A DNA stretch of 64,000 bases from a virus: positions 1-64,000 of IMG/VR virus record IMGVR_UViG_3300047471_000162. One strand, written 5' to 3'. How positions within the stretch are numbered: position 1 is the first letter of the stretch; every line of letters starts with the position of its first letter. Of this stretch, positions 3,677 to 20,370 are shown one piece after another. The translations under genes were made by a program, and so were the position numbers. The notes beneath the pieces were generated by a model, which was not told the origin of the DNA, made no database searches, and was given only the letters and a program-made list of their open reading frames with translations.

Positions 3677-3973
3677 ATGACTAATACATATGCTGATTCA
3701 AGAGATGACAACTACAACTGGCTGTTCGGAGATATGGATATACCCTCTGGTATGTGGCTAGAATTACACAGAGATCTTGACTATCCCCGATACCGTTTAC
3801 TCCTTATGGATGCTTCTGGTCCTCTGGAGGCTATGCTTATATATCCTAGTGAGGAGCGTATGACTGCTAAAGAGATGATAGGTAATCCTATGCCGACTTT
3901 TCTCCTATGGATAGAACAGAAGAAGAAGCTTGAAAAGAGTAGAAGACAGATAGTTGCACAGTTAGGTTTCTAA
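3677..3973 (+). CDS. Hypothetical protein
   Basis: ORF track; followed by a terminator hairpin. Confidence 0.7.
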   Translation: MTNTYADSRDDNYNWLFGDMDIPSGMWLELHRDLDYPRYRLLLMDASGPLEAMLIYPSEERMTAKEMIGNPMPTFLLWIEQKKKLEKSRRQIVAQLGF

Positions 3974-3977: not shown

Positions 3978-4015
3978 AAATCTCCTTAGACCATATTCGC
4001 GGTCTAAGGAGATTT
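3978..4015. terminator. Bidirectional terminator between convergent genes
   Basis: AAATCTCCTTAGACC...GGTCTAAGGAGATTT inverted repeat. Confidence 0.8.
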
Positions 4016-4023: not shown

Positions 4024-4578
4024 CTATCCTCCCAGGAGTTGGGATGCAGTATACCCACTACCTTGGATGGGAGTCTTTCTCTTCTTTCCGCTATACCAAG
4101 GGAGAGCCAGTCCATCGTTCTCTCTTCTTGGTACTAGGTGTATATGTAGATGGAATACTGATTGGGTCGCCGAAATTCCCTTACTTGTGATGAGATTGAA
4201 ATCTCCACCGATTTCTGCGGCTAGTTCAGAAGCTAGTTCTACTACGTCTCCCGATATAGTTGGATTTTCGGTGAAGTCGGTTATATGTCTCTTTGGAATA
4301 ACGAGTAAATGTCCCTCTACGACAGGATCAAGGGGAACGATTGCTATAGCATTCCACCAGTCTTTTACTACCGTGGCTGGTGAGTTCCCTACCACGATTC
4401 CACAGAATATACAAGGTGGCGCGATTTTTCTCTCCAATTCTTCTAGTAGCTCTTTCTTTGCTTCCAGACGGGATCTGATTACTTCTTTCCCTACGGTATA
4501 GCCCGTAGGGAGATGAGTTATCTTTATATAGACAGATCCGCTGGTATATACATCTATTCGTAGATCTTCTATCTCCAT
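4024..4578 (-). CDS. HIT-family nucleotide hydrolase with an N-terminal release-factor-like domain lacking GGQ
   Basis: CIFC...GHLLVIPKRH...HLHIHLVPR histidine triad; N-terminal DLRIDVY..SG...ITHLPTG resembles RF1/RF2 domain 3. Confidence 0.85.
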   Translation of the reverse strand: MEIEDLRIDVYTSGSVYIKITHLPTGYTVGKEVIRSRLEAKKELLEELERKIAPPCIFCGIVVGNSPATVVKDWWNAIAIVPLDPVVEGHLLVIPKRHITDFTENPTISGDVVELASELAAEIGGDFNLITSKGISATQSVFHLHIHLVPRRENDGLALPWYSGKKRKTPIQGSGYTASQLLGG

Positions 4579-4952
4579 TTGTTATAGCGCTCCAGTTCTT
4601 CTGGTAGTAGTTCGTTCTTAAATCGTTCTATCCAGCGGCGCCGGGTATTAGTACCAAAGTAGCTATAAAATTCTTCTGGTATCTTTCCCTTGATTGGTGG
4701 ATAGAGTGGATCGTAGTCCAGATTCTCTAAAAGGGTATTTTCGTCGTTACAACAACAGTAGTAACCTCCCCCAGAATATCCATCTTCTTTCTCATTGATA
4801 CAGCCACTACAACAGGGTCCATCGTGAACTTCACTCCACCAGTACTCTTTTGGATCTTTTACTACTGGTATAGATTTTGGGGTTAGCTCTCCCCAATCTC
4901 TACTTTTTAACTTAGCGATAGCATCGAAAGACTCGAAACTAATTTCTCTCAT
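4569..4952 (-). CDS. Hypothetical Cys-rich protein
   Basis: ORF track; overlaps the next gene as in an operon. Confidence 0.7.
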   Translation of the reverse strand: MREISFESFDAIAKLKSRDWGELTPKSIPVVKDPKEYWWSEVHDGPCCSGCINEKEDGYSGGGYYCCCNDENTLLENLDYDPLYPPIKGKIPEEFYSYFGTNTRRRWIERFKNELLPEELERYNKWR

Positions 4953-5391: not shown

Positions 5392-5931
5392 CTACCTGTC
5401 AAGACCCGCTAGATAGGTTCTCATGATGTAATTCCAGCGAGCATCGTGAAGAGCGTTGTGATCACCCTCTAGTTGTGCTGGATAAGCAGGGTTTCCTAGT
5501 CTATGGAGTTCCTGACGTAGATCGTTGGTCCACATTGGCATATCTTCTGGTAGATCCAACATTCTTCCAAAGAGCTGACTCAGAACTACGTGATCGTATG
5601 CCGCATACCATGCCCATAGTTCTGGAATACCTTTTTCAGTACAGAATTCTCTTACTTCCTTGGCAATCTGCTCTCTGGGCTTTACATGCTTCCAGTCAGG
5701 ATGGAAGGTATCCCAGGATACTAATCCATCTGTTATCTTTACTGGGAGATAACGAAGAACATTCTTACGTAGCCAATCATTTTTAGCTGCTCTTACCATT
5801 ACTCCCATGTCATGAACTACTGCATAATACTCTTTACCGTCTTCTCGAACCATACCAATGGAGATTAACTCGATAGTTTCTCCATCATCGATAAATTCGG
5901 TATCGTAATCAATTTTCATCTGTTCTCCCAA
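5392..5931 (-). CDS. DEDDh 3'-5' exoribonuclease, RNase AS (Rv2179c)-like
   Basis: YDTEF..DG.TIELISIG, LWAWYAAYDHV, HNALHDARWN motifs. Confidence 0.85.
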   Translation of the reverse strand: MGEQMKIDYDTEFIDDGETIELISIGMVREDGKEYYAVVHDMGVMVRAAKNDWLRKNVLRYLPVKITDGLVSWDTFHPDWKHVKPREQIAKEVREFCTEKGIPELWAWYAAYDHVVLSQLFGRMLDLPEDMPMWTNDLRQELHRLGNPAYPAQLEGDHNALHDARWNYIMRTYLAGLDR

Positions 5932-6246: not shown

Positions 6247-6822
6247 TCACAATTTATCCCTCAAAAAGATTAGATACTCGAAATCGGGCTCGTCTAGTCC
6301 GATTCTGGGGCTTATTGGCATGATTCTAGCTGTGCCTGAGCTATTTTTAGTCAAATAGTCCAAGTCTTTCTTCATAACTTCATCATCAACCCAGATATAT
6401 GGAGTATTGGGTCGATTCTCGTTCATCCATGAAGCGATTCTCTTGGTTTTCCAGTGAAGTTTCTCTGGATTATAGGTATCTTTGTCTATCCAGTCAATGA
6501 CTGGTAACTCTGGGAGACCAATATGTGGACCGATCCACACGTTGGCATCCTCCTCCCATGTGGTAGCCCAGATGACCTCATACCCCAGAGACATGATTCT
6601 CGGCCCGTGAAGGGGGTTTAGCCAGACTTTCAGAGGCTTGGTGGCTACCCAGCCCGTTGGGGTCATCCGATGCGTCTCATAGCCCTCTGGGCGCTTCGTA
6701 GGTTTGGCCGCGTAGGGATTAAGTGGACCGTCTACATCCAATAAAATCACTGGTTTATTAGAAGCTTCCATACTTAACTCTCTCCTCGTTACACCAAGTA
6801 TGGATGGCCACCAACTTCCCAT
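6247..6822 (-). CDS. HAD-family phosphatase of the Swiss-Army-Knife RNA-repair type
   Basis: LLDVDGPLN, WATTW and WVDD motifs; start probably at MEASNK. Confidence 0.8.
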   Translation of the reverse strand: MGSWWPSILGVTRRELSMEASNKPVILLDVDGPLNPYAAKPTKRPEGYETHRMTPTGWVATKPLKVWLNPLHGPRIMSLGYEVIWATTWEEDANVWIGPHIGLPELPVIDWIDKDTYNPEKLHWKTKRIASWMNENRPNTPYIWVDDEVMKKDLDYLTKNSSGTARIMPISPRIGLDEPDFEYLIFLRDKL

Positions 6823-8418: not shown

Positions 8419-8490
8419 CGGGCACGGGGAAGATGGTAATCCGCCTGCTTTGGGAGCAGGATGAACTCGGTTCGATTCCGGGGTGCCCGA
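8419..8490 (+). tRNA. tRNA-Pro(TGG)
   Basis: CCTGC-TTTGGGA-GCAGG anticodon arm; GGTTCGATTCC T arm. Confidence 0.9.
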
Positions 8491-8496
8491 CGTGTT

Positions 8497-8580
8497 AATA
8501 TGTGCCGTTGCATGTGGCAACGCAACTCCCTCGCAAGGGGACTGGGGTCATGTCCGGATGGGTTCGAATCCCTGCATATT
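8497..8580 (+). ncRNA. Atypical tRNA-like RNA with long variable arm, anticodon ambiguous (CGC or GCA)
   Basis: AATATGT/GCATATT acceptor-like stem; GGGTTCGAATCCC T arm. Confidence 0.5.
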
Positions 8581-8641
8581 AGCTTTAACTTGAGTTATAA
8601 ATCACGTATAGACATCACTAAACACACAGTAAGTAGGTTCA

Positions 8642-8827
8642 ATGTTTACCTGCAAGAATTGTGGTGAAGATATCAGAAACGGCAGTTCTACTGTTTATAT
8701 GAATGGAAATCATCCAATACTCTGGGTACATGACCTTGGTGGCTCTTCCATATGCGATCCGCAATGGAAGTATAGTCCTAGAGCAGAACCTCAAAACACA
8801 ACAGATACGATGCTAAATACAAATTAA
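8642..8827 (+). CDS. Small Zn-ribbon-like protein
   Basis: CKNCG...WVH....C. Confidence 0.6.
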   Translation: MFTCKNCGEDIRNGSSTVYMNGNHPILWVHDLGGSSICDPQWKYSPRAEPQNTTDTMLNTN

Positions 8828-8838
8828 TAACTCTATAT

Positions 8839-8910
8839 GGGCATGTAGCTTAGTTGGTAAAGCGGTGGGTTGAAGCCCCGCAGTCGTCGGTTCAATTCCG
8901 AACTTGCCCA
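8839..8910 (+). tRNA. tRNA-Phe(GAA)
   Basis: Cloverleaf; GTGGG-TTGAAGC-CCCGC. Confidence 0.9.
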
Positions 8911-8930
8911 CATTAAACTTTGGAGAGATT

Positions 8931-9095
8931 ATGGCAAAGAAGAATGATACACCCAAGGATCTTCCGGTCCTTATGCCTACTGGCAAGCGTCCTTCTTTGA
9001 AGGAACTGGCAGATACCGCTAAGATTGATCCAGTAGTAGATCGTCTTATCACCGATAAGAATATTTCAGTATCCGCGTTTAACTCCTCAATTTAA
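8931..9095 (+). CDS. FxSxx-COOH family RiPP precursor-like peptide (54 aa)
   Basis: C-terminus VSAFNSSI-stop; GGAGAG RBS before ATG at 8931. Confidence 0.75.
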   Translation: MAKKNDTPKDLPVLMPTGKRPSLKELADTAKIDPVVDRLITDKNISVSAFNSSI

Positions 9096-9102
9096 TAGTT
9101 TT

Positions 9103-9175
9103 GCCTGATTAGCTCAGCGGTCAGAGCGCGGGACTCATAAGCCCGTGGTCATCGGTTCGAATCCGATATCAGGTA
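9103..9175 (+). tRNA. tRNA-Met or Ile2 (CAT)
   Basis: Cloverleaf; CTCATAA loop. Confidence 0.9.
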
Positions 9176-9176
9176 C

Positions 9177-9255
9177 TGCGCGGATAGAGAAACGGTGTCT
9201 CGCGAGCCTCATAAGCTCGAAAGTAGTGTGGGTTCGACTCCCCCCTGCGCCACCA
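9177..9255 (+). tRNA. tRNA-Met(CAT), initiator-like
   Basis: CTCATAA loop; 1:72 mismatch; encoded CCA. Confidence 0.85.
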
Positions 9256-9435
9256 CTTATCCTTAGGGATTAGTAGATATATCGAAAGATAGAAGGTTAC
9301 TGTACACCCTTATACGAGTACAGTACTCTGGGGACTAAGCAGATTACTAAGATCTGGCTGACTAGGAGTATAAACTAGGAGGCCCACTAAAACTTTATCG
9401 TCCTCCGGAGGCACGACGTTAAACTACCTCCACCT

Positions 9436-9509
9436 GCGGATATTGCATAATGGTAGTGCCCAACTCTTCCAAAGTTGAGGCGCGGGTCCGATTCCCGCTA
9501 TCCGCTCCA
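9436..9509 (+). tRNA. tRNA-Gly(TCC)
   Basis: CAACT-CTTCCAA-AGTTG; encoded CCA. Confidence 0.9.
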
Positions 9510-9510
9510 A

Positions 9511-9581
9511 TCCCGATTCGTATAAAGGCATTACGCTGCTCTCTGGAAGCAGTCATCGAAGTTCGAATCTTTGATCGGGAG
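9511..9581 (+). tRNA. tRNA-Gln(CTG)
   Basis: CTGCT-CTCTGGA-AGCAG. Confidence 0.9.
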
Positions 9582-9585
9582 CTTT

Positions 9586-9710
9586 AGTACGTGGAGCAAC
9601 TGCATTCCGTCTGGTTCACAGCTTTGGCAGACAGGTAGATGCATAGCGTTGACACAATACCTTAGCGGGTATAGGCTATCAAGGACATAAGCTGAGAGAT
9701 AGCGCGTACT
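9586..9710 (+). ncRNA. Unassigned multi-branched structured RNA
   Basis: AGTACGT/GCGTACT closing stem with internal TGCAT/ATGCA, GTCTG/CAGAC and ATACC/GGTAT helices. Confidence 0.45.
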
Positions 9711-9802
9711 ATTTAGTTTTAGTAGGTCTGGGTAGTCTGCTAGCGACTGTAATCGGAGCCACCCTTTAATATGCGAGGAACGAGCTTTCCCTACTAATTT
9801 AA

Positions 9803-9873
9803 TCCCCTGTGGTGTAAAGGTAGCACCGGAGCCTTTGGATCTCCTAGTCTTGGTTCGAATCCCGGCAGGGGAG
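9803..9873 (+). tRNA. tRNA-Gln(TTG)
   Basis: CTTTGGA loop; cloverleaf. Confidence 0.9.
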
Positions 9874-9876
9874 CTT

Positions 9877-9970
9877 TTCGTATGTATGAGCAATTGGAAG
9901 ACGCGACCATCTAGAATGGTGCACCCGCCTGGGTATTAACGGATGTGGGTTCAAATCCCACCTTACGAAA
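9877..9970 (+). ncRNA. Atypical tRNA-like RNA (Leu TAG-like, C33, long variable region)
   Basis: TTCGTA/TACGAA stem; ACCA-TCTAGAA-TGGT; GTGGGTTCAAATCCCAC T arm. Confidence 0.5.
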
Positions 9971-10002
9971 ACTTTACTAACTTAATCTTATGAGGTACTA
10001 TC

Positions 10003-10176
10003 ATGGCAGAAAAGAAGAAAGCCGTTAAACATGTAGGTTTTAAGAATGCTGAGAAGAAAGTAGAATCTGAGGGCTATTCAAAGAAATCCGCAGGTGCTAT
10101 TATCGCATCAGCTTCTCGTAATGCTTCTTCTGCTGAAAAGAAAAAGAACCATAAGCTTAATAAAGTAAAAGGCTAA
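10003..10176 (+). CDS. Small Lys-rich basic protein (57 aa)
   Basis: GAGG RBS; MAEKKKAVKHVGFKNAEKK...KVKG. Confidence 0.7.
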   Translation: MAEKKKAVKHVGFKNAEKKVESEGYSKKSAGAIIASASRNASSAEKKKNHKLNKVKG

Positions 10177-10193
10177 ACTATAGGAGGCAAACT

Positions 10194-10502
10194 ATGGGGT
10201 ATTACTCAACATTTGAAGTTATTGATACTGATATTCAGGATATTGTCGATATTCTAAATGATGTATTAGAGGACACTGCGCACCCCGGATGGGTTACTTA
10301 TAGTAACGAGGAAGTTCACGGTTGCGGCTCCACTAAATGGTACGACTGGATAGAGGATTTGGCACTCTTCGCTACCAAATATCCTGACAACTTTCTTGTC
10401 ATCGAGCGTTGTGGTGAAGAGTCTCCAGATATGTCTAGAGCAATTGTCCGTCATGGTACTGTGCGGGAAGTTGAGCCCGAGATAGTATGGCCTGAATATT
10501 GA
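10194..10502 (+). CDS. Hypothetical protein
   Basis: AGGAGG RBS. Confidence 0.8.
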   Translation: MGYYSTFEVIDTDIQDIVDILNDVLEDTAHPGWVTYSNEEVHGCGSTKWYDWIEDLALFATKYPDNFLVIERCGEESPDMSRAIVRHGTVREVEPEIVWPEY

Positions 10503-10550
10503 TGGTATTCTCCTATTAAGATATGTGACACTTAATAGGAGAATATTTTT

Positions 10551-10982
10551 ATGCCAAAGCAAACAAAGTCTGAGCAGATTGATATGCTTCAAACAGAGTT
10601 AAAAGAAGCTCAAGCTATCATTCGTACTAAGACTAATAGAATAGACGAACTTCATAGTCAAGCTGACGATTTCATGGGTATAATTAGCGATCTAAATGCT
10701 GAGATTGCTAAACTTATTCATACTCCTGAGTTCGCTGCTGATACAGAGTCTGCATTTGACAGAGGACGTCAGGATGGAGTACGCTCTCTCGTATACTCGG
10801 CACAAGGCAAGCTAGTAGATATGCAGAAGGAGATTGAGGTACTTGTGCAATCCCTGGTTCGCAAGTATAGTAGAGACATGAGTTGGGATCTGTTCCATGG
10901 CGGTTATCCTTCTAGCGAGGAAGTAAAGCTACCAGATACAGACTTCACCAGAAAGCTACTAGACAACGCTGAGAAGTTGTAG
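10551..10982 (+). CDS. Coiled-coil hypothetical protein
   Basis: AGGAG RBS. Confidence 0.8.
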   Translation: MPKQTKSEQIDMLQTELKEAQAIIRTKTNRIDELHSQADDFMGIISDLNAEIAKLIHTPEFAADTESAFDRGRQDGVRSLVYSAQGKLVDMQKEIEVLVQSLVRKYSRDMSWDLFHGGYPSSEEVKLPDTDFTRKLLDNAEKL

Positions 10983-11015
10983 TACAGTAGTTAATACGAG
11001 CCCGCAAGGGCTTAT

Positions 11016-11088
11016 CCTCTCGTAGTGTATTGGTGTAGCACGGCACCCTGTCACGGTGTAAGGGCCGGTTCAATTCCGGTCGGGAGGA
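11016..11088 (+). tRNA. tRNA-Asp(GTC)
   Basis: GCACC-CTGTCAC-GGTGT. Confidence 0.9.
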
Positions 11089-11244
11089 CGTATCCGGTTA
11101 GTGGAATAGTCATCCGGACACATGCGAAAAGCTATGAATTGCATGTCGGCATAGAAGTGGCGCAGACAAGGGAAGGGCCACCAGCGAGGAGAACCAGTCG
11201 AAAGGCTGGGCACAAGGGATGAGACTCGCACTAAACTTAATAAT

Positions 11245-11317
11245 GCTCGATTGGACTAGCGGTTATGTCGCTTCCCTCTCAAGGAAGAGATCACGGGTTC
11301 AAATCCCGTATCGAGTA
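11245..11317 (+). tRNA. tRNA-Glu(CTC)
   Basis: CTTCC-CTCTCAA-GGAAG. Confidence 0.9.
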
Positions 11318-11381
11318 CAAGGCTATAGGTTCAGAACCTTAATTGGTGCCGGAATTCTGAATAGGCATCCTATGGCTTCAT

Positions 11382-11459
11382 GCCGCTGTTACTCTGTTGG
11401 TAGGGGTGCCCTGGTTTTCACCCAGGATGTCAGCGCCGGTTCGATTCCGGTCAGCGGTA
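11382..11459 (+). tRNA. tRNA-Glu(TTC)
   Basis: CCTGG-TTTTCAC-CCAGG. Confidence 0.88.
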
Positions 11460-11539
11460 CTTCATTAATTTAATAACTTTCCTATACAATAGACTTATGC
11501 TATAGCGAGCATTTCTATTTTCCTAGGAAAGGTATTCCC

Positions 11540-11839
11540 ATGGCTTTTACTTATACTATTGTTAAGGCTGATGCACTAGCCGTTAACGATCAGGTTCGTG
11601 CGGCAGTTATGCAGGACGGTCACTGCTACGTATTTCCAGTCCCTACAACTTCTGGGGCAACATTTCCCACCACTGTACGTTCTATCACTAATCTAGCTGC
11701 CGGTACTCCTGGTGCTGGTGGAACTGATGGACTATACAGTGTGCAGCTAAATAACGCTTCTGTATTTGCTCTACCAGTTGATTTCGTTATTAACGATAAT
11801 AACGACTTCATCGTTAAGGCAACAGGTACTGCTCCGTAA
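11540..11839 (+). CDS. Hypothetical protein (composition like a virion protein)
   Basis: ORF with RBS; T/A/G-rich. Confidence 0.75.
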   Translation: MAFTYTIVKADALAVNDQVRAAVMQDGHCYVFPVPTTSGATFPTTVRSITNLAAGTPGAGGTDGLYSVQLNNASVFALPVDFVINDNNDFIVKATGTAP

Positions 11840-11878
11840 GTCTTGAAGGTTGGCCACTAACCTGATATAGTGGCACTT

Positions 11879-11952
11879 GCCCCTATAGCTCATGTAGGCA
11901 GAGCAGGACTCTTGTAAAGTTCAGGCGGAGGGTGCAAGTCCTTCTGGGGGCT
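11879..11952 (+). tRNA. tRNA-Thr(TGT)
   Basis: GGACT-CTTGTAA-AGTTC; variant T loop TGCAAGT. Confidence 0.85.
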
Positions 11953-11990
11953 CTTGATTTAAAATCAACTGGTCTGCTACACTAATATCT

Positions 11991-12395
11991 ATGAACACTT
12001 GTAAATACTGTAATTTAGATATAGATAGCAGATCAGTTAAAATCTACTGTAATAATATTTGTCAGCAGAAATTTCAACAGGCTGAGAAAATAAAACTATG
12101 GTTAGAAACTGGTAAAGCTTACGCAGGTTCACATAAGAATCATTATGTTCGTAATTATGTAGCAGATGAGCAACAGCATCTTTGTGATATTTGTAGTTTT
12201 CCAGATTCATGGAATAATATGGACCTAGTTTTTGTATTAGATCATATTGACGGGGACTCTAGTAATAACTGGAGAACTAATCTTAGATTAGTTTGTCCTA
12301 ACTGCGATAGTCAGTTGTCAACGTATAAAGCTAAAAATAAAGGAAATGGACGACATTCTAGGCGGGAACGTTACGCAGAGGGTAAGTCCTATTAG
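11991..12395 (+). CDS. HNH homing endonuclease
   Basis: CDIC...LDHIDGDSSNNWRTNLRLVCPNCD. Confidence 0.9.
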   Translation: MNTCKYCNLDIDSRSVKIYCNNICQQKFQQAEKIKLWLETGKAYAGSHKNHYVRNYVADEQQHLCDICSFPDSWNNMDLVFVLDHIDGDSSNNWRTNLRLVCPNCDSQLSTYKAKNKGNGRHSRRERYAEGKSY

Positions 12396-12541
12396 ATTTA
12401 GGTTATGCACAGTAACACCTGGCACGGTGGTCTTGAAACCAAAGGTACTTCCGGGGTATCGTTGAAGGGTCAAGAGATAATCCGATTAAACGCTGAAGAC
12501 CTGTGTATCGAGACCGGTGTATGAACCGTCATCTCGATTAT

Positions 12542-12615
12542 GCTCCAATATCCCAGCGGCTAGAGGACGCAAGCTCAAACCTTGTGTGTCGTGGGTTCGA
12601 ATCCCACTTGGAGTA
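12542..12615 (+). tRNA. tRNA-Leu(CAA) with short variable loop
   Basis: GCAAG-CTCAAAC-CTTGT. Confidence 0.85.
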
Positions 12616-12628
12616 CGTAATATTTAAT

Positions 12629-12711
12629 GCCCGCATGGTGAAATCAGGCAGCCACGATTGACTTAAAATCAATTGTCTTCGGACGTGTCGGTTCGAGTCC
12701 GACTGTGGGCA
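12629..12711 (+). tRNA. tRNA-Leu(TAA), bldA-type anticodon
   Basis: ATTGA-CTTAAAA-TCAAT; variable arm present. Confidence 0.92.
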
Positions 12712-12755
12712 CGAGCTTTAAGGAAACCGTTGGGCATGACAACGGAACCAATTTT

Positions 12756-12836
12756 GCCCGTGTGGCGGAACTAGGCAGACGCGCCTGACTTAGGATCAGG
12801 TTCTTCGGAGTGCAGGTTCGATTCCTGTCACGGGTA
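12756..12836 (+). tRNA. tRNA-Leu(TAG)
   Basis: CCTGA-CTTAGGA-TCAGG. Confidence 0.92.
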
Positions 12837-12866
12837 CGTTAATAAATCCTACAAGGAGGCAACCTT

Positions 12867-13079
12867 ATGGATATCTTGGGGACTCTTGGTCCTTGGCTTC
12901 TTCTTATTATCATTGGTGGTTTTACTATCTTTATGACTCAGAAGAAGGGTTGGAAGTGGCAGCAGATTATCGCTGGAGTTTTACTTCTAGCAGCACTCTA
13001 CGGTAACTTTCCTTCATTACCTCAAAGTATCAATACTGGACTGAACAGTATCGTTACATCCTTTGAGAAAGGTAAGTAA
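12867..13079 (+). CDS. Two-TM membrane protein (possible holin)
   Basis: Two hydrophobic segments; near the endolysin; AAGGAGG RBS. Confidence 0.6.
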   Translation: MDILGTLGPWLLLIIIGGFTIFMTQKKGWKWQQIIAGVLLLAALYGNFPSLPQSINTGLNSIVTSFEKGK

Positions 13080-13093
13080 AGCCTTCGGGCTAT

Positions 13094-13161
13094 AGGGAGC
13101 GCACTGGGTGCGGGACACTCTCCAAAAGTATCCTTGCGGGGTTCGATCCCCCGGCTCCCTG
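13094..13161 (+). tRNA. tRNA-Trp(CCA), compact form with mini D arm
   Basis: AGGGAGC/GCTCCCT; GCAC-TGG-GTGC; CTCCAAA loop. Confidence 0.8.
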
Positions 13162-13213
13162 CTTTTCCTGTAGAATAGCTAAAGAATTAGTTATTCTACT
13201 ATAAGGAGCACAA

Positions 13214-13990
13214 ATGGCACTTATGCCAAATGCAACTTGGATCGGCCCAACTCCTAACCGTTACATTGGTGGGATGACAGCCTATCACGTTGTAGTACTA
13301 CACATTGAAGAAGGAACTGACGCGGGTTCCCGCGCATGGTTCACAAATCCAGAATCTCAGGCTTCCGCCCATTTCTTAAATCCCAAGAGTGGTCCTCTTG
13401 AGCAGTTAATCGACTCAGATGACGCATCTTGGGCTCAGATGGCTGGAAATCATATTGCTATCTCTGTTGAGCATGCAGGAAATGCAGGAGATGACCTAAC
13501 ACCTTCTCAGCTTGAGAACGACGCACAGCTTCTAGCTTGGGCTCATTTCACTCATGGTATTCCACTTCAGTCCACTGATGATCCTAACGGATTTGGGTTG
13601 GGTTGGCATGGAATGGGTGGAGACGCTTGGGGTGGACATTTCGGATGCCCTGGAGAGCCTATAAAGGCTCGTAGAGACGCTATCGTAGCCAGAGCGGCAC
13701 AGATCCTAGGACAGGCTCCAACAGGCGCTCCCAGCCCCTCTCCAGCCCCTCAGGGACCCGGTTTCCCGGGTGAGTACCTATCTGTACAGTCTCCTATGCT
13801 TCACGACAACAATGTTAGAGTGTGGCAGCAGAAGATGCACGACAGAGGCTGGACAATCAGCGTTGATGGATGGTATGGTAATGCTTCAGCAAGTGTTTGC
13901 CGTCAGTTCCAGTCTGAAAAGGGATTGACAGCGGATGGTATTGTTGGACCTAAGACATGGTTCACGACCTGGAATTCTCCAGTAACGTAA
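13214..13990 (+). CDS. Endolysin: N-acetylmuramoyl-L-alanine amidase plus peptidoglycan-binding domain
   Basis: VVLH...SAHF...SVEH...H..CPG; C-terminal VDG.YG...FQ...GLTADGIVGPKTW. Confidence 0.9.
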   Translation: MALMPNATWIGPTPNRYIGGMTAYHVVVLHIEEGTDAGSRAWFTNPESQASAHFLNPKSGPLEQLIDSDDASWAQMAGNHIAISVEHAGNAGDDLTPSQLENDAQLLAWAHFTHGIPLQSTDDPNGFGLGWHGMGGDAWGGHFGCPGEPIKARRDAIVARAAQILGQAPTGAPSPSPAPQGPGFPGEYLSVQSPMLHDNNVRVWQQKMHDRGWTISVDGWYGNASASVCRQFQSEKGLTADGIVGPKTWFTTWNSPVT

Positions 13991-13993
13991 GAC

Positions 13994-14022
13994 TTGACAC
14001 TACTCCCGCCTAGTGCTACAGT
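13994..14022 (+). promoter_or_regulatory. Sigma70/HrdB-type promoter
   Basis: TTGACA-17-TACAGT. Confidence 0.7.
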
Positions 14023-14081
14023 AGTGAATACGCCGAACGGAAGTATAAACAAAGATTTAGAACACTCCTAGTAGGCTTTAA

Positions 14082-14118
14082 TCCCGCATAGCTCAATGGC
14101 AGAGCACGTTATGTTAAA
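14082..14118 (+). pseudogene. 5' half of a tRNA (Asn-like), truncated just before an HNH gene
   Basis: TCCCGCATAGCTCAATGGCAGAGCA...TGTTAA with no T arm or 3' strand. Confidence 0.65.
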
Positions 14119-14126
14119 CTATAGTT

Positions 14127-14543
14127 ATGAATAATGACTATATGAAAGTTTATATGCAACAGCGTAGGAATAATCGACGTGCTACACTAACAGAGCTTGC
14201 AGGAGCTATGTGTCAACTCTGCCCTTCAGTTGAAGGGTTAGAGTTTGACCATATAGACAAAGCTACTAAGCTATTCACTCTAAGTGGAGCTGGGCTGGAT
14301 AAGGCTTGGCAAAAAATACTTGACGAACTTGCCAAGTGTCAGCTACTATGTAGTGAGTGCCACAAAATTAAAACTAGTATTATGGTAGATCACATAGGTG
14401 GTCATAATAAAATTCTAGAACAAGATCTACTGCATGGTACTGCACGAATGTATACCCTTAAAGGGTGTAGATGTAGTATGTGCAGATTGGCTAAGAAACG
14501 CTATCGTAATAAGGAAATTCTTATTAATGAATTAGCATCTTAG
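14127..14543 (+). CDS. HNH homing endonuclease
   Basis: CQLC...LEFDHID...KCQLLCSECHKIKT; C-terminal HGT...GCRC..C. Confidence 0.9.
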   Translation: MNNDYMKVYMQQRRNNRRATLTELAGAMCQLCPSVEGLEFDHIDKATKLFTLSGAGLDKAWQKILDELAKCQLLCSECHKIKTSIMVDHIGGHNKILEQDLLHGTARMYTLKGCRCSMCRLAKKRYRNKEILINELAS

Positions 14544-14549
14544 CGGTAT

Positions 14550-14625
14550 TCTCACGGGGCAGCTATTGGCAGCTGCAACGGTCTGTTAAACCGTCACCCT
14601 ACTGGTTCGATTCCAGTCGTGAGAG
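14550..14625 (+). tRNA. tRNA-Asn(GTT)
   Basis: ACGGT-CTGTTAA-ACCGT. Confidence 0.88.
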
Positions 14626-14630
14626 CTTGT

Positions 14631-14727
14631 AGGAAGTCTTAGACATGGGCTACGGTTCAATTCCGTAACAATGCTGGTGGGTGGTTGATCGCCACATGCC
14701 TTCTAGGTGCGAAACCTAGAGCTTCCT
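14631..14727 (+). ncRNA. Structured RNA containing a T-arm-like hairpin
   Basis: AGGAAG/CTTCCT closing stem; TACGG-TTCAATT-CCGTA; TCTAGGT/ACCTAGA hairpin. Confidence 0.5.
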
Positions 14728-14736
14728 CATTGACTT

Positions 14737-14877
14737 GACAGCGATGCGTAGATAAGAGATACTTCAAGGGAACCCTTAGTCGTAGGTTCGAATCCTACCC
14801 GGCCGAACACTTCGGTTGGTAGCTCAGCGGTAGAGCAGGGGTAAGTAAAATTCTTTTATCGCTTCTTTCTAGCTGTC
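14737..14877 (+). ncRNA. Y RNA, YrlA-like, with a circularly permuted tRNA-like domain (unit 1)
   Basis: GACAGC/GCTGTC terminal stem; CGATGCG...TACTTC...TTTCTAG scaffold; order T arm, looped acceptor-like stem, D arm; upstream of a Ro60 gene. Confidence 0.85.
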
Positions 14878-14886
14878 TTATAACTT

Positions 14887-14980
14887 AAGAGCCGATGCGT
14901 AGATCAGGGGTTACTTCCTCACTAATTCAAATGGTTGGGCCATAGCGCCCGTCTCCTCAGATCGCTTTTTCTAGGCCCTT
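14887..14980 (+). ncRNA. Y-RNA-like unit 2
   Basis: AAGAGCC/GGCCCTT stem; CGATGCG...TTACTTC...TTTCTAG. Confidence 0.75.
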
Positions 14981-14996
14981 ACGCTAACTTAATTTT

Positions 14997-15069
14997 TCTA
15001 CCCGATGCGCAGTTAACAGTTACTTCCTTCCAAAATATAAGCACTGTTAACGACTTTTTCTAGGGTGGA
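14997..15069 (+). ncRNA. Y-RNA-like unit 3 (minimal)
   Basis: TCTACCC/GGGTGGA and GTTAACAGT/ACTGTTAAC stems; same three motifs. Confidence 0.75.
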
Positions 15070-15080
15070 TCTCAAATTTC

Positions 15081-15208
15081 AGTTCCGATGCGAAGGTATA
15101 CTGGTTACTTCCCACTTGAAATGAGAACGGGAGGGTTTGAATCCCTCAAGGTCCACTCAGGGCCTGCATGACGCCAGTTAACACCAGAAGCCGCTATTTC
15201 TAGGAACT
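15081..15208 (+). ncRNA. Y-RNA-like unit 4 with T-arm hairpin
   Basis: AGTTCC/GGAACT stem; same motifs; GAGGG-TTTGAAT-CCCTC. Confidence 0.75.
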
Positions 15209-15221
15209 TATTTTTAATCCT

Positions 15222-15263
15222 CCCCATTGTCCGAGTTTTCTCGCACTAATGGGGTTTATTTTT
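15222..15263 (+). terminator. Intrinsic terminator-like hairpin after the Y-RNA array
   Basis: CCCCATT...AATGGGG followed by TTTATTTTT. Confidence 0.6.
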
Positions 15264-15298
15264 CTCTAACCATGTACCACGATAAAGGAGGCAATACA

Positions 15299-16876
15299 AT
15301 GGCTAAGTTCAATCAGGTAGTTAAGACAGGTGTACAGTCCCCTATTAAGACTACAGTTAAGACTGTAAACGCTGATGGTTTCGCAGCATTTCAGAGGGAT
15401 ACCAAGTCAGAGCTGTTCCTCCTGGCAGTATCCAACTTTGTTGGGCAGGATATGTTCTATGAGAATGCAAAGAACCGTGATGACCGTTTTGCCAAGCTCT
15501 GCCAGGCAGTAGCTGTGCAGGATTCCGACTGGTTCCGCAAGTTCGTGGGTTGGCTCCGTAATGGTGCTCAGATGCGTTCTGCGTCCATCGTAGCGGCTGC
15601 TGAGGGTGCTAAGGCACTTCTAGACGCTGGCGCGGTGAATGGCTCTCCTAGGGCCCTTGTAGCGGCTTCTATGGCACGTGCTGATGAGCCTGGTGAGTTC
15701 CTGGCATACTGGACTTCTAAGTATGGTAAGAATCTGCCTCAGTCGATTAAGAAGGGTGTTGCTGATGCGGCTAACCGTCTCTACAACGAGTACTCTCTTC
15801 TTAAGTACGATACGGATTCCAAGGGGTTCCGTTTTGCTGATGTTCTTCAGCTTAGCCACGCTAAGGCAAAGGATGCAAAGCAGAACGACCTTTTCCACTA
15901 TGCACTGAACCGTCGTTATGGTAAGGAGCACGTTATTTGGCATCACAATGCGCAAATTCCATTGAATCTTCCTATGATTGACATTCGACGTTTTATTATG
16001 GATCTTCCAGTTAATAAGCGCCGTGACTACCTGTCAAAGGCTCCTGAAGCCTTTAAGAGTGCGGGTATGACTTGGGAGGCTCTTGCAGGATGGCTTCAGG
16101 GTCCTATGGATGCTCAGGCTTGGCAGTCAGTTATTCCCAACATGGGTTATATGGCACTGCTTCGTAACCTTCGTAACTTCCAGGAAGCGGGCGTGGATAC
16201 TAAGGTATTCAAGTCTGTGCTGACTAAGCTATCCAATAAGGATGAGGTTGCAAAGTCTCGTCAGTTCCCTTTCCGATTCCTGTCTGCCTACCAGGCAAAT
16301 CTGGGTAACCTCAAGATTGCTGCGGCTCTCGAAGAGGCACTAGAGTCTTCTCTTATTAACGTTCCGGCGCTATCTGGTAAGACTTTGATCCTGGTTGACC
16401 GCTCTGGTAGCATGTTCTGGAGCAATGATGACAAGATGAACCTGACGCTTGCCGATCAGGCAGCGATCTTCGGATCCTCTTTGGCACTGCGTGCTGAGAG
16501 TGCTACACTGGTCCAGTTCGGCTCTAGCTCCTCTGAGATCAACTTCCGCAAGGGAGATTCTGTTCTCAAGTTGGTCAAGGACAGTTTCATTGGGATGGGT
16601 GGCACAGCTACAGATCGTGCTATCAAGGCGCACTTCAAGGATCATGATCGTGTTATTCTCATCACTGATGAGCAGTACAACTCTGGTCATGCTCCTTCTG
16701 TACCTAAGGGCACTCCGATGTACACGTGGAACCTTGGTGGATACCCGGCTGCTCAGGCAGAGTCCGGTAGCAACAAGAAGCACACATTCGGTGGCTTGAC
16801 TGACAAGGCATTCAGTATGATCCCTATGCTTGAGTCTGGTCAGTCTGGCGTTTGGCCTTGGGATCTGGTAGAGTAG
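15299..16876 (+). CDS. Ro60/Rsr-like TROVE-domain RNA-binding protein with C-terminal VWA domain
   Basis: FYE...RF, RADEPGE, MTWE, MGYMALLRNLRN, SRQFPFRFLSAY, LVDRSGSM (MIDAS), ITDEQ; AAGGAGG RBS places the start at 15299. Confidence 0.93.
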   Translation: MAKFNQVVKTGVQSPIKTTVKTVNADGFAAFQRDTKSELFLLAVSNFVGQDMFYENAKNRDDRFAKLCQAVAVQDSDWFRKFVGWLRNGAQMRSASIVAAAEGAKALLDAGAVNGSPRALVAASMARADEPGEFLAYWTSKYGKNLPQSIKKGVADAANRLYNEYSLLKYDTDSKGFRFADVLQLSHAKAKDAKQNDLFHYALNRRYGKEHVIWHHNAQIPLNLPMIDIRRFIMDLPVNKRRDYLSKAPEAFKSAGMTWEALAGWLQGPMDAQAWQSVIPNMGYMALLRNLRNFQEAGVDTKVFKSVLTKLSNKDEVAKSRQFPFRFLSAYQANLGNLKIAAALEEALESSLINVPALSGKTLILVDRSGSMFWSNDDKMNLTLADQAAIFGSSLALRAESATLVQFGSSSSEINFRKGDSVLKLVKDSFIGMGGTATDRAIKAHFKDHDRVILITDEQYNSGHAPSVPKGTPMYTWNLGGYPAAQAESGSNKKHTFGGLTDKAFSMIPMLESGQSGVWPWDLVE

Positions 16877-17005
16877 TTTTTACAAGATAAGGGTAAGTCT
16901 TTTCTAGAGGGAACCCTTGGGTACAAGATATGCTGAGTACAGATAGGCAAATGCTTGTAAACTGATCCTCCACCATCTGATTTGGGGGATGCCTCTAGGA
17001 GTCTT

Positions 17006-17079
17006 GGGCTTGTAGCTCCAATTGGAAGAGCAACTGATTTGCACTCAGTAGGTTGTCGGTTCGAGTCCGACCTGGTCCA
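17006..17079 (+). tRNA. tRNA-Ala(TGC)
   Basis: ACTGA-TTTGCAC-TCAGT; G3:U70. Confidence 0.9.
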
Positions 17080-17112
17080 CTCCTGTACAGAAAACTACAA
17101 GGAGGCAAAATA

Positions 17113-17343
17113 ATGGCTAAGAACTACGTTAAGATTAATGGTATTAAGATTGGTCCTCCAGCACCCGGTGGCTGGACTGCTGAGGATGTTGCTTCTTGGA
17201 ATTTTGATGAGAACGGTACTCCGCGCAACCATAATCCTACGCGTTGTCAGTATGTAGGTGGACTTCTCACCAAGAGTCGTTGTACTCGCGATGCTGAATC
17301 TGGAAATGCCTACTGTTCTCGGCACATTGGCAAGGGTGCCTAA
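17113..17343 (+). CDS. Small C3H Zn-finger-like protein
   Basis: AGGAGG RBS before MAKNY; RCQY...RC......YCSRH. Confidence 0.7.
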   Translation: MAKNYVKINGIKIGPPAPGGWTAEDVASWNFDENGTPRNHNPTRCQYVGGLLTKSRCTRDAESGNAYCSRHIGKGA

Positions 17344-17369
17344 GTTAAACAGGCGCGAAAGCGCCTTAT

Positions 17370-17440
17370 GCTCCGCAAGCATTAAGGTGATGTAACTGGC
17401 TCTTACCCAGTGGAACACGGTTCGATACCGTGGCGGAGTA
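17370..17440 (+). tRNA. tRNA-Lys(CTT)
   Basis: ACTGG-CTCTTAC-CCAGT. Confidence 0.88.
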
Positions 17441-17510
17441 CAACACGTAGTTGCAACTACGTATAGGTGTGTTGGGGTTCAACTCCCAGTGGTAAACAAC
17501 ACACTGATTT

Positions 17511-17583
17511 GCCCCCTTAGCTCAATGGTAGAGTACCGGACTTTTAATCCGTGGAGTTGTCGGTTCGAGTCCGACAGGGGGCA
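17511..17583 (+). tRNA. tRNA-Lys(TTT)
   Basis: CGGA-CTTTTAA-TCCG. Confidence 0.9.
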
Positions 17584-17718
17584 CATGGATGAAATATATG
17601 AATTTGGCAGTAAGGTCGCCTTTAGGTGTTCTGGTTGTGGTAAGACTGAAGGTGGCTTTATGGATAGAGTAGCAGCCCAGGTAGCTCTACGCTTACATAA
17701 GATTGGATGTAAGAAAAG

Positions 17719-18210
17719 TTGACAGTACCCATTGCTGGTGATTTTGGATTAGTACCAATTAAGGGAACTACAGGTTTTCTTATACGAGTTGGTCAATGGC
17801 TCAATGGTGATGGCTTTAAGAACTATGAGCATGCTTTTGTATATATTGGTGACGATAAGATAGTAGAAGCTGAACCAGGCGGAGCTAGAGTAGCAGACCT
17901 TAGTGAGTACGATGGTCGTAGTGTCCTCTGGAGTACTGACAAGGTACAGTTGACCGATGAGCAGAGAACGGCCGTCGTAGGAGCGGCACAGGGCTTTGTA
18001 GGGGTACCCTACAGCTTCCTTGACTACCTACTCCTGGCTCTTAAGCGACTGCACATCTCAGTACCGATTTTGAACAAGCGTGTGCTAGAGTCCAAGCATC
18101 TTATCTGTAGTCAGCTAGTAGCTGAAGCTGAGGCAGTGGGAGGTATATTGCTAACGAGCAAGCCAGCGTATACAGTAACCCCAGCAGATCTAGCCAATAT
18201 AATCGCGTAA
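17719..18210 (+). CDS. Permuted papain-like NlpC/P60 (YaeF/YiiX-type) protein
   Basis: GD...H(AFVYIG)...VEA...PY...ICSQLV, with His before Cys. Confidence 0.8.
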   Translation: MTVPIAGDFGLVPIKGTTGFLIRVGQWLNGDGFKNYEHAFVYIGDDKIVEAEPGGARVADLSEYDGRSVLWSTDKVQLTDEQRTAVVGAAQGFVGVPYSFLDYLLLALKRLHISVPILNKRVLESKHLICSQLVAEAEAVGGILLTSKPAYTVTPADLANIIA

Positions 18211-18227
18211 TAAACAAGGAGGCAACC

Positions 18228-19136
18228 ATGTTTAATAAGCTTTTCAAGTCCAATACAATCCGAACCACTACCACAACTGTTATTGCATCTGGCAATGGTG
18301 CAGTAGCTGCTGGTGGGAGTATCACTGTTATTGGCAGCGGTAATCAGGTTGTAGGATCCGGCGCATATGGTAATGTGTTTACTACAGCTTTTAGTAACAA
18401 GGCTCTTCGTAGTGTGACTCTTCGATTTGGAGATACTACTAAGGCAGCTGTGAGTCTCAATAAGTCTGCTAGTGTGTCTCTGACTAAGAAGGTTGCCGAT
18501 TCTGTGGCATCCCTCAGTCGTGGAAAGATTATGGGTATCCGTATGGATGTTCTTGCTTTTATTGATGCATCAGGTTCTATGAACTATCTTTACAATAACA
18601 ACACTGTAGATGATGTCACTGAGCAGGGTTTGGCGCTAGCTATGACTATTGATGAGGACGGTGTTATTCCTACTGGTACCTTTGGCTCTAACTTCTCTTG
18701 GCGAGCTGATGTTACTCAGAATAACTACCAGGGTGTAGTTACCCGGGAGAATTTCTTTACAGGAGGTTCTACTAATCTTTCCGCTGCTCTCGCCTCTTTG
18801 GAGGAGGCAGCCAAGAAGGCTACTAATCCTATTTATGCCATGATCGTTACTGATGGCGCTCCGAATGATCGTGTGGATGTTGTAAAGCGCATTCGCCGCC
18901 TGTCTCAGTATCCTGTCTTTATCAAGTTCCTTGTTGTGGGCAATGATGCTCGTGCTTGGAAGTTTGTTGAGGATGACTTGAATAATATGGATAGTAGTCT
19001 GCGACTGGTGGATAATGTAAACTCCCGTAGGATCCTTAATCTTAACGAGTTGACTTCTGAGAAGTTTGCAGATCTTCTTACCGAAGAGTTGCCCGAGTGG
19101 GTTGATGCAGCTAAGGCTGCTGGTCTGCTTGTATAG
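18228..19136 (+). CDS. VWA domain protein (TerF-associated vWA-like)
   Basis: IDASGSM, GGSTN and IVTDGAP MIDAS motifs; FIKFLVVG. Confidence 0.85.
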   Translation: MFNKLFKSNTIRTTTTTVIASGNGAVAAGGSITVIGSGNQVVGSGAYGNVFTTAFSNKALRSVTLRFGDTTKAAVSLNKSASVSLTKKVADSVASLSRGKIMGIRMDVLAFIDASGSMNYLYNNNTVDDVTEQGLALAMTIDEDGVIPTGTFGSNFSWRADVTQNNYQGVVTRENFFTGGSTNLSAALASLEEAAKKATNPIYAMIVTDGAPNDRVDVVKRIRRLSQYPVFIKFLVVGNDARAWKFVEDDLNNMDSSLRLVDNVNSRRILNLNELTSEKFADLLTEELPEWVDAAKAAGLLV

Positions 19137-19162
19137 TATTAAGTAGCCCTTTGGGGCTATAT

Positions 19163-19235
19163 GTCACCGTAGCTCAGGGGATAGAGCACTTCGCTACGAA
19201 CGAAGGGGTCGGGGGTTCAAATCCCTCCGGTGACA
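19163..19235 (+). tRNA. tRNA-Arg(ACG)
   Basis: CTTCG-CTACGAA-CGAAG. Confidence 0.92.
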
Positions 19236-19283
19236 CAGGGATACCTAAACCATGTTGAGACGCACCCTAGAAAGCCTTAATAT

Positions 19284-19844
19284 ATGGTGGCTCCGCCAGA
19301 GGCCATAATGATCTGGTTTTATACTTCAAGCACGGAGGTTTACTTGTCTCGTACTTATAGCCATCGTCCTCATTGGGTTAAGCTAAACGATCCTAAAACA
19401 CCTACTAAAGAACGTCATCAGCACTACGTAGTAAAGAAGGAAAAAGTAGGAGAAGAATTAGTAGAGACGTATGCATGGCGCCGAGATTTGGATATGCCAA
19501 AGCATACATATACAAGAGCTATCTACTATCGATGGACTGAGCAAGTTCCCTGTACTATTGACATTCCAGAGCATAGCTGGCAAGATCGCAGTAAGTATCC
19601 TGATAAGCTGTGCGATAAACGACTACTATTTACTGTAGGCTGTCCTTGCTGCTCTCGCCGCTACACGAAGCGCTTGACCAACGGAGCTAGACGTAGTAAG
19701 GTTAACCAAGCAATGAATAGTGCAGTACGGGATCTGGGCAAGTGGATACTTCTACCAGATGATGTTATTGCGTATGATGAAGCTTGGGATGATGTTGACA
19801 TCAATCCTGTTAGCAAGTACGATAGTCCTTATTGGTGGGACTAG
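19284..19844 (+). CDS. Hypothetical protein
   Basis: ORF; start probably TTG near 19344 after GGAGG. Confidence 0.7.
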   Translation: MVAPPEAIMIWFYTSSTEVYLSRTYSHRPHWVKLNDPKTPTKERHQHYVVKKEKVGEELVETYAWRRDLDMPKHTYTRAIYYRWTEQVPCTIDIPEHSWQDRSKYPDKLCDKRLLFTVGCPCCSRRYTKRLTNGARRSKVNQAMNSAVRDLGKWILLPDDVIAYDEAWDDVDINPVSKYDSPYWWD

Positions 19845-19858
19845 CCCGAAAGGGTATC

Positions 19859-19931
19859 GCCTCTGTAGCTCAAGGGATAGAGCAAGCGGTTTCTACCCGC
19901 TAGGTTGGGAGTTCGAATCTCTCCAGGGGCA
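19859..19931 (+). tRNA. tRNA-Arg(TCT)
   Basis: AGCGG-TTTCTAC-CCGCT. Confidence 0.92.
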
Positions 19932-19970
19932 CGTAAGAACCATATCGATATAATAATCTGGAGGCTATAA

Positions 19971-20183
19971 ATGGGTATCTTCAATCGTGGTGGTGGACCT
20001 TCGGGTACTCCTGCGGAAGAGGATGACACAGTTATCGGTGTTCGTGGTTCGGCCGCTAATAAGGGTCGTGGTAAGGTAACAGCAGAGCGTACTAGATTTG
20101 GTGACTCTACTGTGGATGTAACTTGGGAGAATGGTACTAAGGGAACTTATGCCCAGTGGGAAGTTGCTGGTACTAACATCTAA
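19971..20183 (+). CDS. Small SH3-like hypothetical protein
   Basis: GGAGG RBS; G.GKV...VDVTWENG. Confidence 0.7.
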   Translation: MGIFNRGGGPSGTPAEEDDTVIGVRGSAANKGRGKVTAERTRFGDSTVDVTWENGTKGTYAQWEVAGTNI

Positions 20184-20207
20184 GTAAAACGGGGCGAAAG
20201 CCCTTAT

Positions 20208-20278: not shown

Positions 20279-20287
20279 CGCTTTAAT

Positions 20288-20366: not shown

Positions 20367-20370
20367 CTTT

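Follow-up and report, generated by a model that had tools for sequence, protein, structure and literature searches.

Genomic locus and reading frame of the fusion gene

The window analysed here comprises the first 64 kb of an IMG/VR phage record of 112.9 kb (GC 44.6%), which CheckV rates as complete. On its minus strand we found a gene whose product joins a short release factor (RF)-like module, lacking the GGQ motif and hereafter called mini-RF, to a HIT hydrolase domain. An ESM Atlas entry is identical to this protein over all 184 aa. The features of the locus are as follows.

4024-4578, minus strand: mini-RF::HIT fusion ORF (P0001), 184 aa plus stop, a single open frame with no internal stops
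4423-4578, minus strand: GGQ-less mini-RF module, residues 1-52 (strands 6-11, 17-22 and 28-32; helix 37-52)
4537-4545, minus strand: hairpin turn S12-G13-S14 replacing the GGQ catalytic loop, from loop comparison and the model
4435-4437, minus strand: possible internal start, the TTG codon of L48, aligned with Met1 of HIT-only homologues (alignment A3)
4096-4422, minus strand: Hint-type HIT hydrolase domain, residues 53-161, with an N-terminal C56-x-x-C59, from Pfam, PDB and Foldseek
4138-4152, minus strand: histidine triad H143-L-H145-I-H147, from the translation, aligned with the triads of 3o0m and 3imi
4027-4095, minus strand: basic C-terminal tail, residues 162-184 (KKRK, Gly/Ser-rich end), pLDDT 42-58
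4590-4593, minus strand: GGAG, Shine-Dalgarno-like, 11 nt 5' of ATG-1, from the sequence
3978-4015, unstranded: terminator-like 15-bp hairpin between the convergent genes 3677-3973 (plus) and 4024-4578 (minus)
4569-4952, minus strand: Cys-rich 127-aa gene directly upstream of the fusion, translationally coupled to it and syntenic with the HIT gene in the relative L005

The last 10 nt of the upstream gene overlap the start of the fusion gene at ATG-1, and the Cys-rich product of that upstream gene had no match in Pfam or among the PHROGs. Residues 1-62 of the fusion ORF contain just three canonical start codons, ATG-1, TTG-48 and GTG-62, the last of which would cost the protein its conserved CxxC motif. 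Since no start codon follows TTG-48 before the CxFC motif, the HIT domain and the last part of the mini-RF helix are always read in one frame, and since no stop separates the two parts, each ribosome initiating at ATG-1 produces the fusion.

We considered whether a fusion protein is made in vivo at all, or whether TTG-48 is the main start of an ordinary 137-aa HIT protein, with the 47 upstream codons being left over from a mini-RF gene or an assembly artefact. The exact alignment of TTG-48 with Met1 of HIT-only homologues would fit such a start, as would the automatic gene call in the protein database, which gives only a 123-aa product (P0002). That call is not credible, however, as the conserved CxxC would be lost, and the N-terminal module is intact, significantly homologous to RFs and confidently folded, carries its own ATG and GGAG, with coupling to the gene upstream of it. 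The lack of a stop codon before the HIT domain further means that initiation at ATG-1 yields the fusion, and a single-base error cannot have made the junction, because the two parts share a frame and overlap by about 5 residues. We therefore consider the absence of a fusion protein very improbable; given its alignment, TTG-48 may possibly give rise to a HIT-only isoform.

The N-terminal module derives from domain 3 of class-I release factors

The original prediction assigned the N-terminal ~52 aa to the RF1/RF2 domain-3 pattern, and proposed a Pfam RF-1 match and structure prediction as ways of checking this. Searched alone, residues 1-52 did match Pfam RF-1 (E 0.022), over about positions 12-69 of its 116, but at 15.1 bits they fell below the cut-off of 35. 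Matches to TIGR00019 prfA (E 0.0078), phrog_20323 'RF-1 domain' (E 1.4e-4) and phrog_32571 (E 7.5e-5) were likewise weak, but they consistently pointed to RFs. When a profile of the mini-RF family (A1) was run against 5.8 billion proteins, it matched true RF1/RF2 at E 1e-13. The resemblance of residues 1-52 to RF domain 3 is thus far beyond chance. Judged by these profiles, membership in RF-1 (PF00472) holds only at the superfamily or profile level, the single sequence lying under the Pfam cut-off.

AlphaFold modelled residues 1-52 with high confidence (pLDDT 96-97 in the full-length model, 85.7 when modelled alone), predicting the strand-strand-strand-helix core of the class-I RF GGQ domain. 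Foldseek with the module alone returned RF1/RF2 domain 3 in all of the top ~40 rows (TMq 0.75-0.81, rmsd about 2.1 Å). An all-against-all VIA search ranked RF1 1zbt first (Z 7.5, rmsd 2.4 Å, 56 residues aligned), followed by mtRF-R (7.1), E. coli RF1 6osk (7.0, 38% identity), and then mtRF1 and PrfH (6.4), so that RF1, RF2, mtRF-R and PrfH form the top structural matches, in line with the predicted derivation. The module is also matched by dsRBD and HPF-type folds (VIA Z 5-6). All of its Z values lie below 8, which is only middling; the main weight for RF homology is carried by the sequence profile. The absence of the inserted helix found in ArfB/ICT1-type proteins places the module with RF1, RF2 and PrfH. 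A complex prediction of the N-terminal module with the HIT domain scored 0.00 and was counted neither for nor against any reading.

The catalytic loop is deleted in a recurrent phage family

We compared the interval between the D-x-R-x-D and x-R-x-T-H-x-P-T-G motifs, which holds the catalytic loop. Of 120 true RFs, each of which has GGQ, 115 show an interval of 18 residues, as against 8 residues in the fusion protein and 6-12 across the mini-RF family. The GGQ motif is absent from the fusion protein's module, and in its predicted model strands 6-13 and 15-22 are directly joined. The GGQ loop is therefore truly deleted, as originally proposed. RF domains 2 and 4 and an ArfB-type basic tail are also absent; the module stops at residue 52, where the HIT domain begins. 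Because the catalytic loop is missing, peptide-release activity is expected to be absent, and the sequence predicts a protein that cannot release peptides or act as a peptidyl-tRNA hydrolase, which agrees with the description of the module as catalytically dead.

A phmmer search with the module against 1.8 billion representatives recovered 12 short relatives (E 6e-9 to 7e-4), none of which has GGQ: five stand-alone proteins of 55-67 aa, four with N-terminal extensions and three tandem arrays (P0128, P0134 and P0136). The family is marked by D-x-R-x-D, a short turn, x-R-x-T-H-x-P-T-G and an amphipathic helix ending in L-x-x-L-E-x-K, and its invariant residues (D5, H22, P24, T25, G26 and L48) are all kept in the fusion. 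A tblastn search led to gp2 of mycobacteriophage Myrna, which is 45% identical to the module over 55 aa (pairwise E 3e-11), and to gp2 of mycobacteriophage Phabba. Databases label the Myrna protein a 'putative RF-2 protein' and its Phabba counterpart an 'RF-1 peptide chain release factor'; both lack GGQ, and the active release factor that these names imply is not supported by the sequences. On this evidence we assign the module to a recurrent phage-borne family of loop-pruned mini-RF domains (Myrna gp2-like; phrog_32571). In the literature we found no description of loop-deleted or GGQ-less phage RF domains, of Myrna gp2 or of an RF-HIT fusion.

Three long phmmer matches (P0126, P0127 and P0144) were rejected as relatives, being Gram-positive surface-protein (adhesin) repeats, and four further long multi-stretch matches are probably repeats of the same kind. 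When family members were searched by tblastn, matches in records labelled 'phage' were mostly ordinary GGQ-bearing RF genes. RF-domain variants on other phage contigs comprised GGQ-bearing PrfH-like and full-length RFs, one GGS variant and several GGQ-less forms.

The HIT domain is intact and of the Hint type

Residues 65-153 match Pfam HIT with an E of 2.6e-18 (66.9 bits; cut-off 21.5). The closest PDB sequence is 3o0m from M. smegmatis (E 3.3e-18), followed by 3imi, 1y23 and HINT1, and Foldseek with the AlphaFold model matched the domain to 5uvm (E 9e-7, TMt 0.70) as well as to HINT1 and ecHinT. The HIT domain is thus intact, belongs to the Hint branch (PF01230) and has a complete triad; with H143, H145 and H147 present in one frame with the mini-RF, the proposed in-frame fusion to an intact HIT domain is borne out. 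Hint and Fhit proteins account for all of the top matches in sequence and in structure, and among the matches listed there is no aprataxin. We did not see a zinc-finger pattern in the C-terminal tail; P0003, P0004 and P0007, the nearest HIT-only homologues, have this tail in conserved form.

HIT proteins of Streptomyces phages are 55-57% identical to the HIT part of the fusion, and actinophages and Streptomyces genomes encode many HIT-only homologues (280 phage records; 885 proteins at E <= 0.001). Separately, the ESM Atlas holds entries, taken here as leads only, in which the same HIT type is joined to further RNA-related domains, RapZ-C-like or RNase H.

The fusion is found in a single genome

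It had been suggested that the same fusion be sought in other phages. A whole-protein tblastn search of 50,697 phage records gave the 280 matches mentioned above, every one confined to the HIT part, and none of the best 120 homologues listed, out of the 885, covered more than 75% of the query. IMG/VR yielded no second fusion and one HIT-only relative, L005; a further match there, L006, was false, being a tail-fibre-like protein that shares a common 8-mer. A metagenome scan likewise gave no fusion, just one partial relative at a contig end, and a word-index search with residues 1-56 found no match among proteins of 101-322 aa. The profile search among longer proteins covered 257-2000 aa and was dominated by true RFs. 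Within the databases searched, the fusion is therefore found in one genome only.

The two modules are operon partners in Myrna and Phabba

In Myrna, three mutually overlapping genes encode gp1, gp2 and gp3. The first is annotated as hypothetical but is a HIT protein with 49% identity to the HIT domain of the fusion; the second is the GGQ-less mini-RF, of 129 aa; and the third is an RlaP nucleotidyltransferase (PF10127, E 2.7e-22). Phabba has the order HIT, 54-aa ORF, RF-like gene, nucleotidyltransferase. The modules fused in our phage are thus separate operon partners, in the opposite order, in an unrelated phage lineage. Myrna gp2 and Phabba gp2 share with the fusion the RF domain-3 core, the motifs D-x-R-x-D, T-H-x-P-T-G and R-S-x-L-E-A-K, and the link to HIT. 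They differ from it in that Myrna gp2 is a separate protein with a helical N-terminal extension, and in that Myrna's HIT gene is separate and upstream with RlaP immediately downstream, whereas here the parts form one gene in reversed order, with RlaP some 62 kb distant.

RlaP is reported to add 1-2 NMPs to the 3' ends of damaged RNA and to help restore tRNA function (bioRxiv 10.64898/2025.12.29.696909). Fusion combined with gene neighbourhood is a classic signal for joint function, and since the Myrna genes for the two parts are neighbours beside an RNA-repair enzyme, such joint function is probable. The closest syntenic relative of the fusion locus, L005, has the HIT gene and lacks the mini-RF, which indicates that a HIT protein of this type works without a mini-RF. 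At five other GGQ-less loci, no HIT gene was found within 4 kb. As Myrna and Phabba are close relatives, the link between HIT and mini-RF comes from two independent lineages only.

These comparisons bear on another possibility, in which the HIT domain would hydrolyse small nucleotides (Ap4A, aminoacyl-AMP, nucleoside phosphoramidates or a nucleotide of host immunity). The mini-RF would then be a structural or oligomerising appendage acquired by chance, and the RNA-repair neighbours a coincidence in a phage that has many genes of this kind. Closest matches in the Hint branch rather than among aprataxins would suit this role, and so would the very large number of HIT-only homologues, the lack of a mini-RF in L005 and the restriction of the fusion to one genome. 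Against it, the two modules occur as overlapping neighbour genes beside RlaP in an unrelated lineage. Nor is the N-terminal module decaying, since it keeps all family-invariant residues and its fold confidence is very high; the Atlas leads to RapZ-C-like and RNase H partners, taken as leads only, also speak against it. We consider this possibility doubtful.

Gene context points to RNA-end repair

Two further genes on the same strand lie 0.8-2.2 kb from the fusion.

5392-5931, minus strand: Rv2179c-like 3'-5' exoribonuclease (Pfam PF16473 E 1.3e-13; phrog_2259 E 2.6e-53)
6247-6822, minus strand: HAD phosphatase of the 'Swiss Army Knife' RNA-repair type (Pfam PF18143 HAD_SAK_2, E 9.1e-10)

Elsewhere the genome encodes RlaP, Ro60/TROVE, a PF09414 RNA ligase and 30 tRNAs, and near one GGQ-less relative, L011, a PNKP-type phosphatase lies 1.3 kb away. 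Pfam RF-1, RtcB and CCA-adding enzyme had no match in the 112.9-kb genome. We also posited that the HIT domain could clean up abortive RNA-ligase adenylates. This idea is weakened and cannot be general, because Myrna and Phabba had no match to PF09414 (Rnl2), RtcB or PF09511 (Rnl1), the PF09511 search having been run without a working positive control.

The original prediction had counted the fusion and the mini-tmRNA as two disarmed ribosome-rescue components, an interpretation that is supported in part. The mini-tmRNA is real, with an Rfam tmRNA score of 59.2 bits against a cut-off of 47 over 82 nt that comprise a tRNA-like domain only, and so is the dead RF module; the neighbouring genes, however, point more to RNA-end repair than to disarmed ribosome rescue.

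A proposed adaptor role for the mini-RF

Taken together, these data suggest that the mini-RF, itself without catalytic function, serves as a recognition or adaptor module for the HIT domain, which would act as a nucleotidyl hydrolase in repairing RNA ends or maintaining the translation apparatus, a reading to which we give a probability of about 50%. In this proposal, one polypeptide would combine a 52-residue dead remnant of the GGQ domain with an intact Hint-type hydrolase, and the two parts would jointly help the phage to maintain translation RNAs, at the ends of tRNA or rRNA. A dimer of the HIT domain would take off a nucleotidyl adduct of the AMP or GMP type, and the mini-RF would bring it to its target, be this RNA, the ribosome or a protein. 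The data establish the frame, the RF homology and fold, the loss of the loop, the intact HIT motif, the correspondence between the fusion and the Myrna and Phabba gene order, and the setting among RNA-repair genes; what we infer is that the parts cooperate physically, which substrate they act on and whether RNA or ribosomes are bound. Ribosome binding is not known for an isolated GGQ domain, which weighs against a ribosomal target.

A bolder form of the adaptor proposal, which we regard as speculative and unlikely, is that loop-deleted phage RF domains dock at the A site of the large subunit or mimic the tRNA acceptor arm, thereby delivering repair enzymes. Docking would set the domain in the A site beside the CCA end of the P-site tRNA, with HIT as cargo here and RlaP as cargo in Myrna; the targets would be ribosome-bound or toxin-modified tRNA 3' ends, and RNA would be repaired without release of the peptide.

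The module might instead be a decoy that modulates termination or rescue, either by filling the A site of the large subunit or by titrating a host protein that binds RF domain 3, such as the GGQ methyltransferase PrmC or a toxin, with the HIT domain as a passenger or dimerising scaffold. It does superpose, at TMq about 0.76-0.80, on domain 3 of ribosome-bound RF1/RF2 and on RF1 complexed with PrmC (2b3t), and its helix partly retains the basic start (R/K-S-x-L-x-A-K/R, compared with RSQxxNK in true RFs). The tandem module arrays would fit an avidity binder, and the phage also has the tmRNA made of a tRNA-like domain only. Yet the elements that hold RFs on the ribosome, domains 2 and 4 and an ArfB-type tail, are absent; ArfB is reported not to bind ribosomes without its basic C-terminal tail (PMC3950681). 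Also missing is the loop that extends to the peptidyl-transferase centre, and a decoy would leave the conserved coupling to HIT and RlaP unexplained. On balance we find a decoy distinctly unlikely.

Comparison with known systems

To our knowledge, peptidyl-tRNA hydrolysis is almost the only role known for RF GGQ domains, and the few inactive versions described are all cellular or mitochondrial. The mini-RF shares with RF1, RF2 and PrfH (PF00472) a homologous domain-3 core, with the 38% structural-alignment identity to E. coli RF1 given above; unlike them, it lacks GGQ and domains 1, 2 and 4, and its loop is 10 residues shorter. Inactive RF domains have been re-used in non-hydrolytic roles in MRPS35, a mitochondrial bRF-PH without the glutamine, and in Dom34/baeRF-1 (PMC6514570), a survey in which the word 'phage' does not occur. 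Like the mini-RF, these are RF peptidyl-hydrolase domains that have lost the catalytic glutamine, with a non-hydrolytic role, but they are cellular or organellar, have other flanking domains, and none is viral, hairpin-pruned or joined to HIT.

The HIT part has the full HIT fold and triad of Hint proteins (3o0m, B. anthracis 3imi, E. coli HinT and human HINT1), whereas neither these nor the actinophage proteins annotated as 'histidine triad nucleotide binding protein' have an RF-like N-terminal domain. PrfH-RtcB operons, which recruit a Pol-beta nucleotidyltransferase (PMC6514570 section 2.4; PMC9304027), resemble the present locus in coupling an RF-family protein genetically with RNA-repair enzymes. 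They differ in that PrfH is an active hydrolase, retaining GGQ as well as a remnant of the codon domain, and in that RtcB is absent both here and in Myrna.

The mini-RFs thus represent a recurrent phage family from which the catalytic loop has been cleanly removed, mislabelled 'RF-1/RF-2' in public phage records and tied to a HIT hydrolase and RlaP by fusion in one lineage and by an overlapping operon in another. If the module binds ribosomes or tRNA ends, it would represent a new coupling of RNA repair to the translation machinery. A joint function would also provide the first biological context for the actinophage proteins of the 'histidine triad nucleotide binding protein' type, which are very common but functionally blank. 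The hypothesis is concrete and can be tested cheaply in Myrna, a culturable phage of M. smegmatis.

Sequence context of the fusion gene

The fusion gene is translationally coupled to a small cysteine-rich gene, and its HIT part ends in a C-terminal tail:

Window 4569-4952, minus strand: gene for a Cys-rich protein of 127 aa
Window 4027-4095, minus strand: tail of the HIT protein, in which a KKRK patch gives way to a Gly/Ser-rich end

The Cys-rich product carries the cysteine patches CCSGC and YYCCC, and matched neither Pfam nor PHROG. Its gene has a counterpart in a related phage (L005, 3097-3549), where synteny with the HIT gene is preserved. The KKRK and Gly/Ser-rich tail, which is modelled with low confidence, is conserved in P0003, P0004 and P0007, the HIT-only homologues closest to this protein, and may serve as a docking peptide.

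Among ESM Atlas clusters, HIT proteins of the same type have other fusion partners as well: a RapZ-C-like domain in a cluster of 206 members from Actinomycetota, and RNase H in one of 51 members from Bacillota. Both are leads that hint at RNA-linked roles.

GGQ-less release-factor domains in other proteins

Loss of the GGQ motif was also observed in RF-1-domain proteins encoded by three other phage contigs:

L015 3866-4594: GGS in place of GGQ
L018 1426-2046: GVAGN in place of GGQ
L019 3980-4609: GGQ lost, with no replacement motif

These proteins are 200-243 aa long and score above the Pfam cut-off; their loop is near full length, yet GGQ is lost. An SPFH/Band-7 gene lies near the RF-1-domain gene of L019. 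Metagenomic members of the mini-RF family (P0128, P0134 and P0136) contain two to four tandem GGQ-less modules per protein, which in P0136 stand alongside a CxxC zinc-ribbon-like motif.

Some database labels do not match these features: Myrna gp2 and Phabba gp2 bear release-factor names despite both lacking GGQ, and Myrna gp1 (L002 1-540), a clear HIT protein with the H-x-H-x-H triad, is entered as 'hypothetical protein'.

RlaP homologues

RlaP genes were also noted at these places:

L010 858-1907 and 4672-5538: full-length release factor with GGQ, and RlaP homologue
G000:C1 about 66737-67429, beyond the window: nucleotidyltransferase of the RlaP family (PF10127, E 8.5e-22)

On L010, an 86-kb phage contig, 2.7 kb separates the two genes, and this is a further RF/RlaP pairing. 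The RlaP gene of G000:C1 belongs to the same phage genome as the fusion gene, at a distance of about 62 kb.

A tmRNA-like element within a tRNA array

Window 8419-21500, plus strand: array of 30 tRNA genes
Window about 16.1 kb: TROVE/Ro60 gene
Window 20288-20369, plus strand: tmRNA match (Rfam, 59.2 bits against a cut-off of 47)

The tmRNA match, for which ARAGORN made no call, spans 82 nt and covers Rfam model positions 1-374; it consists of the tRNA-like domain without the mRNA-like part. Most amino acids are represented in the tRNA array, within which the TROVE/Ro60 gene lies.
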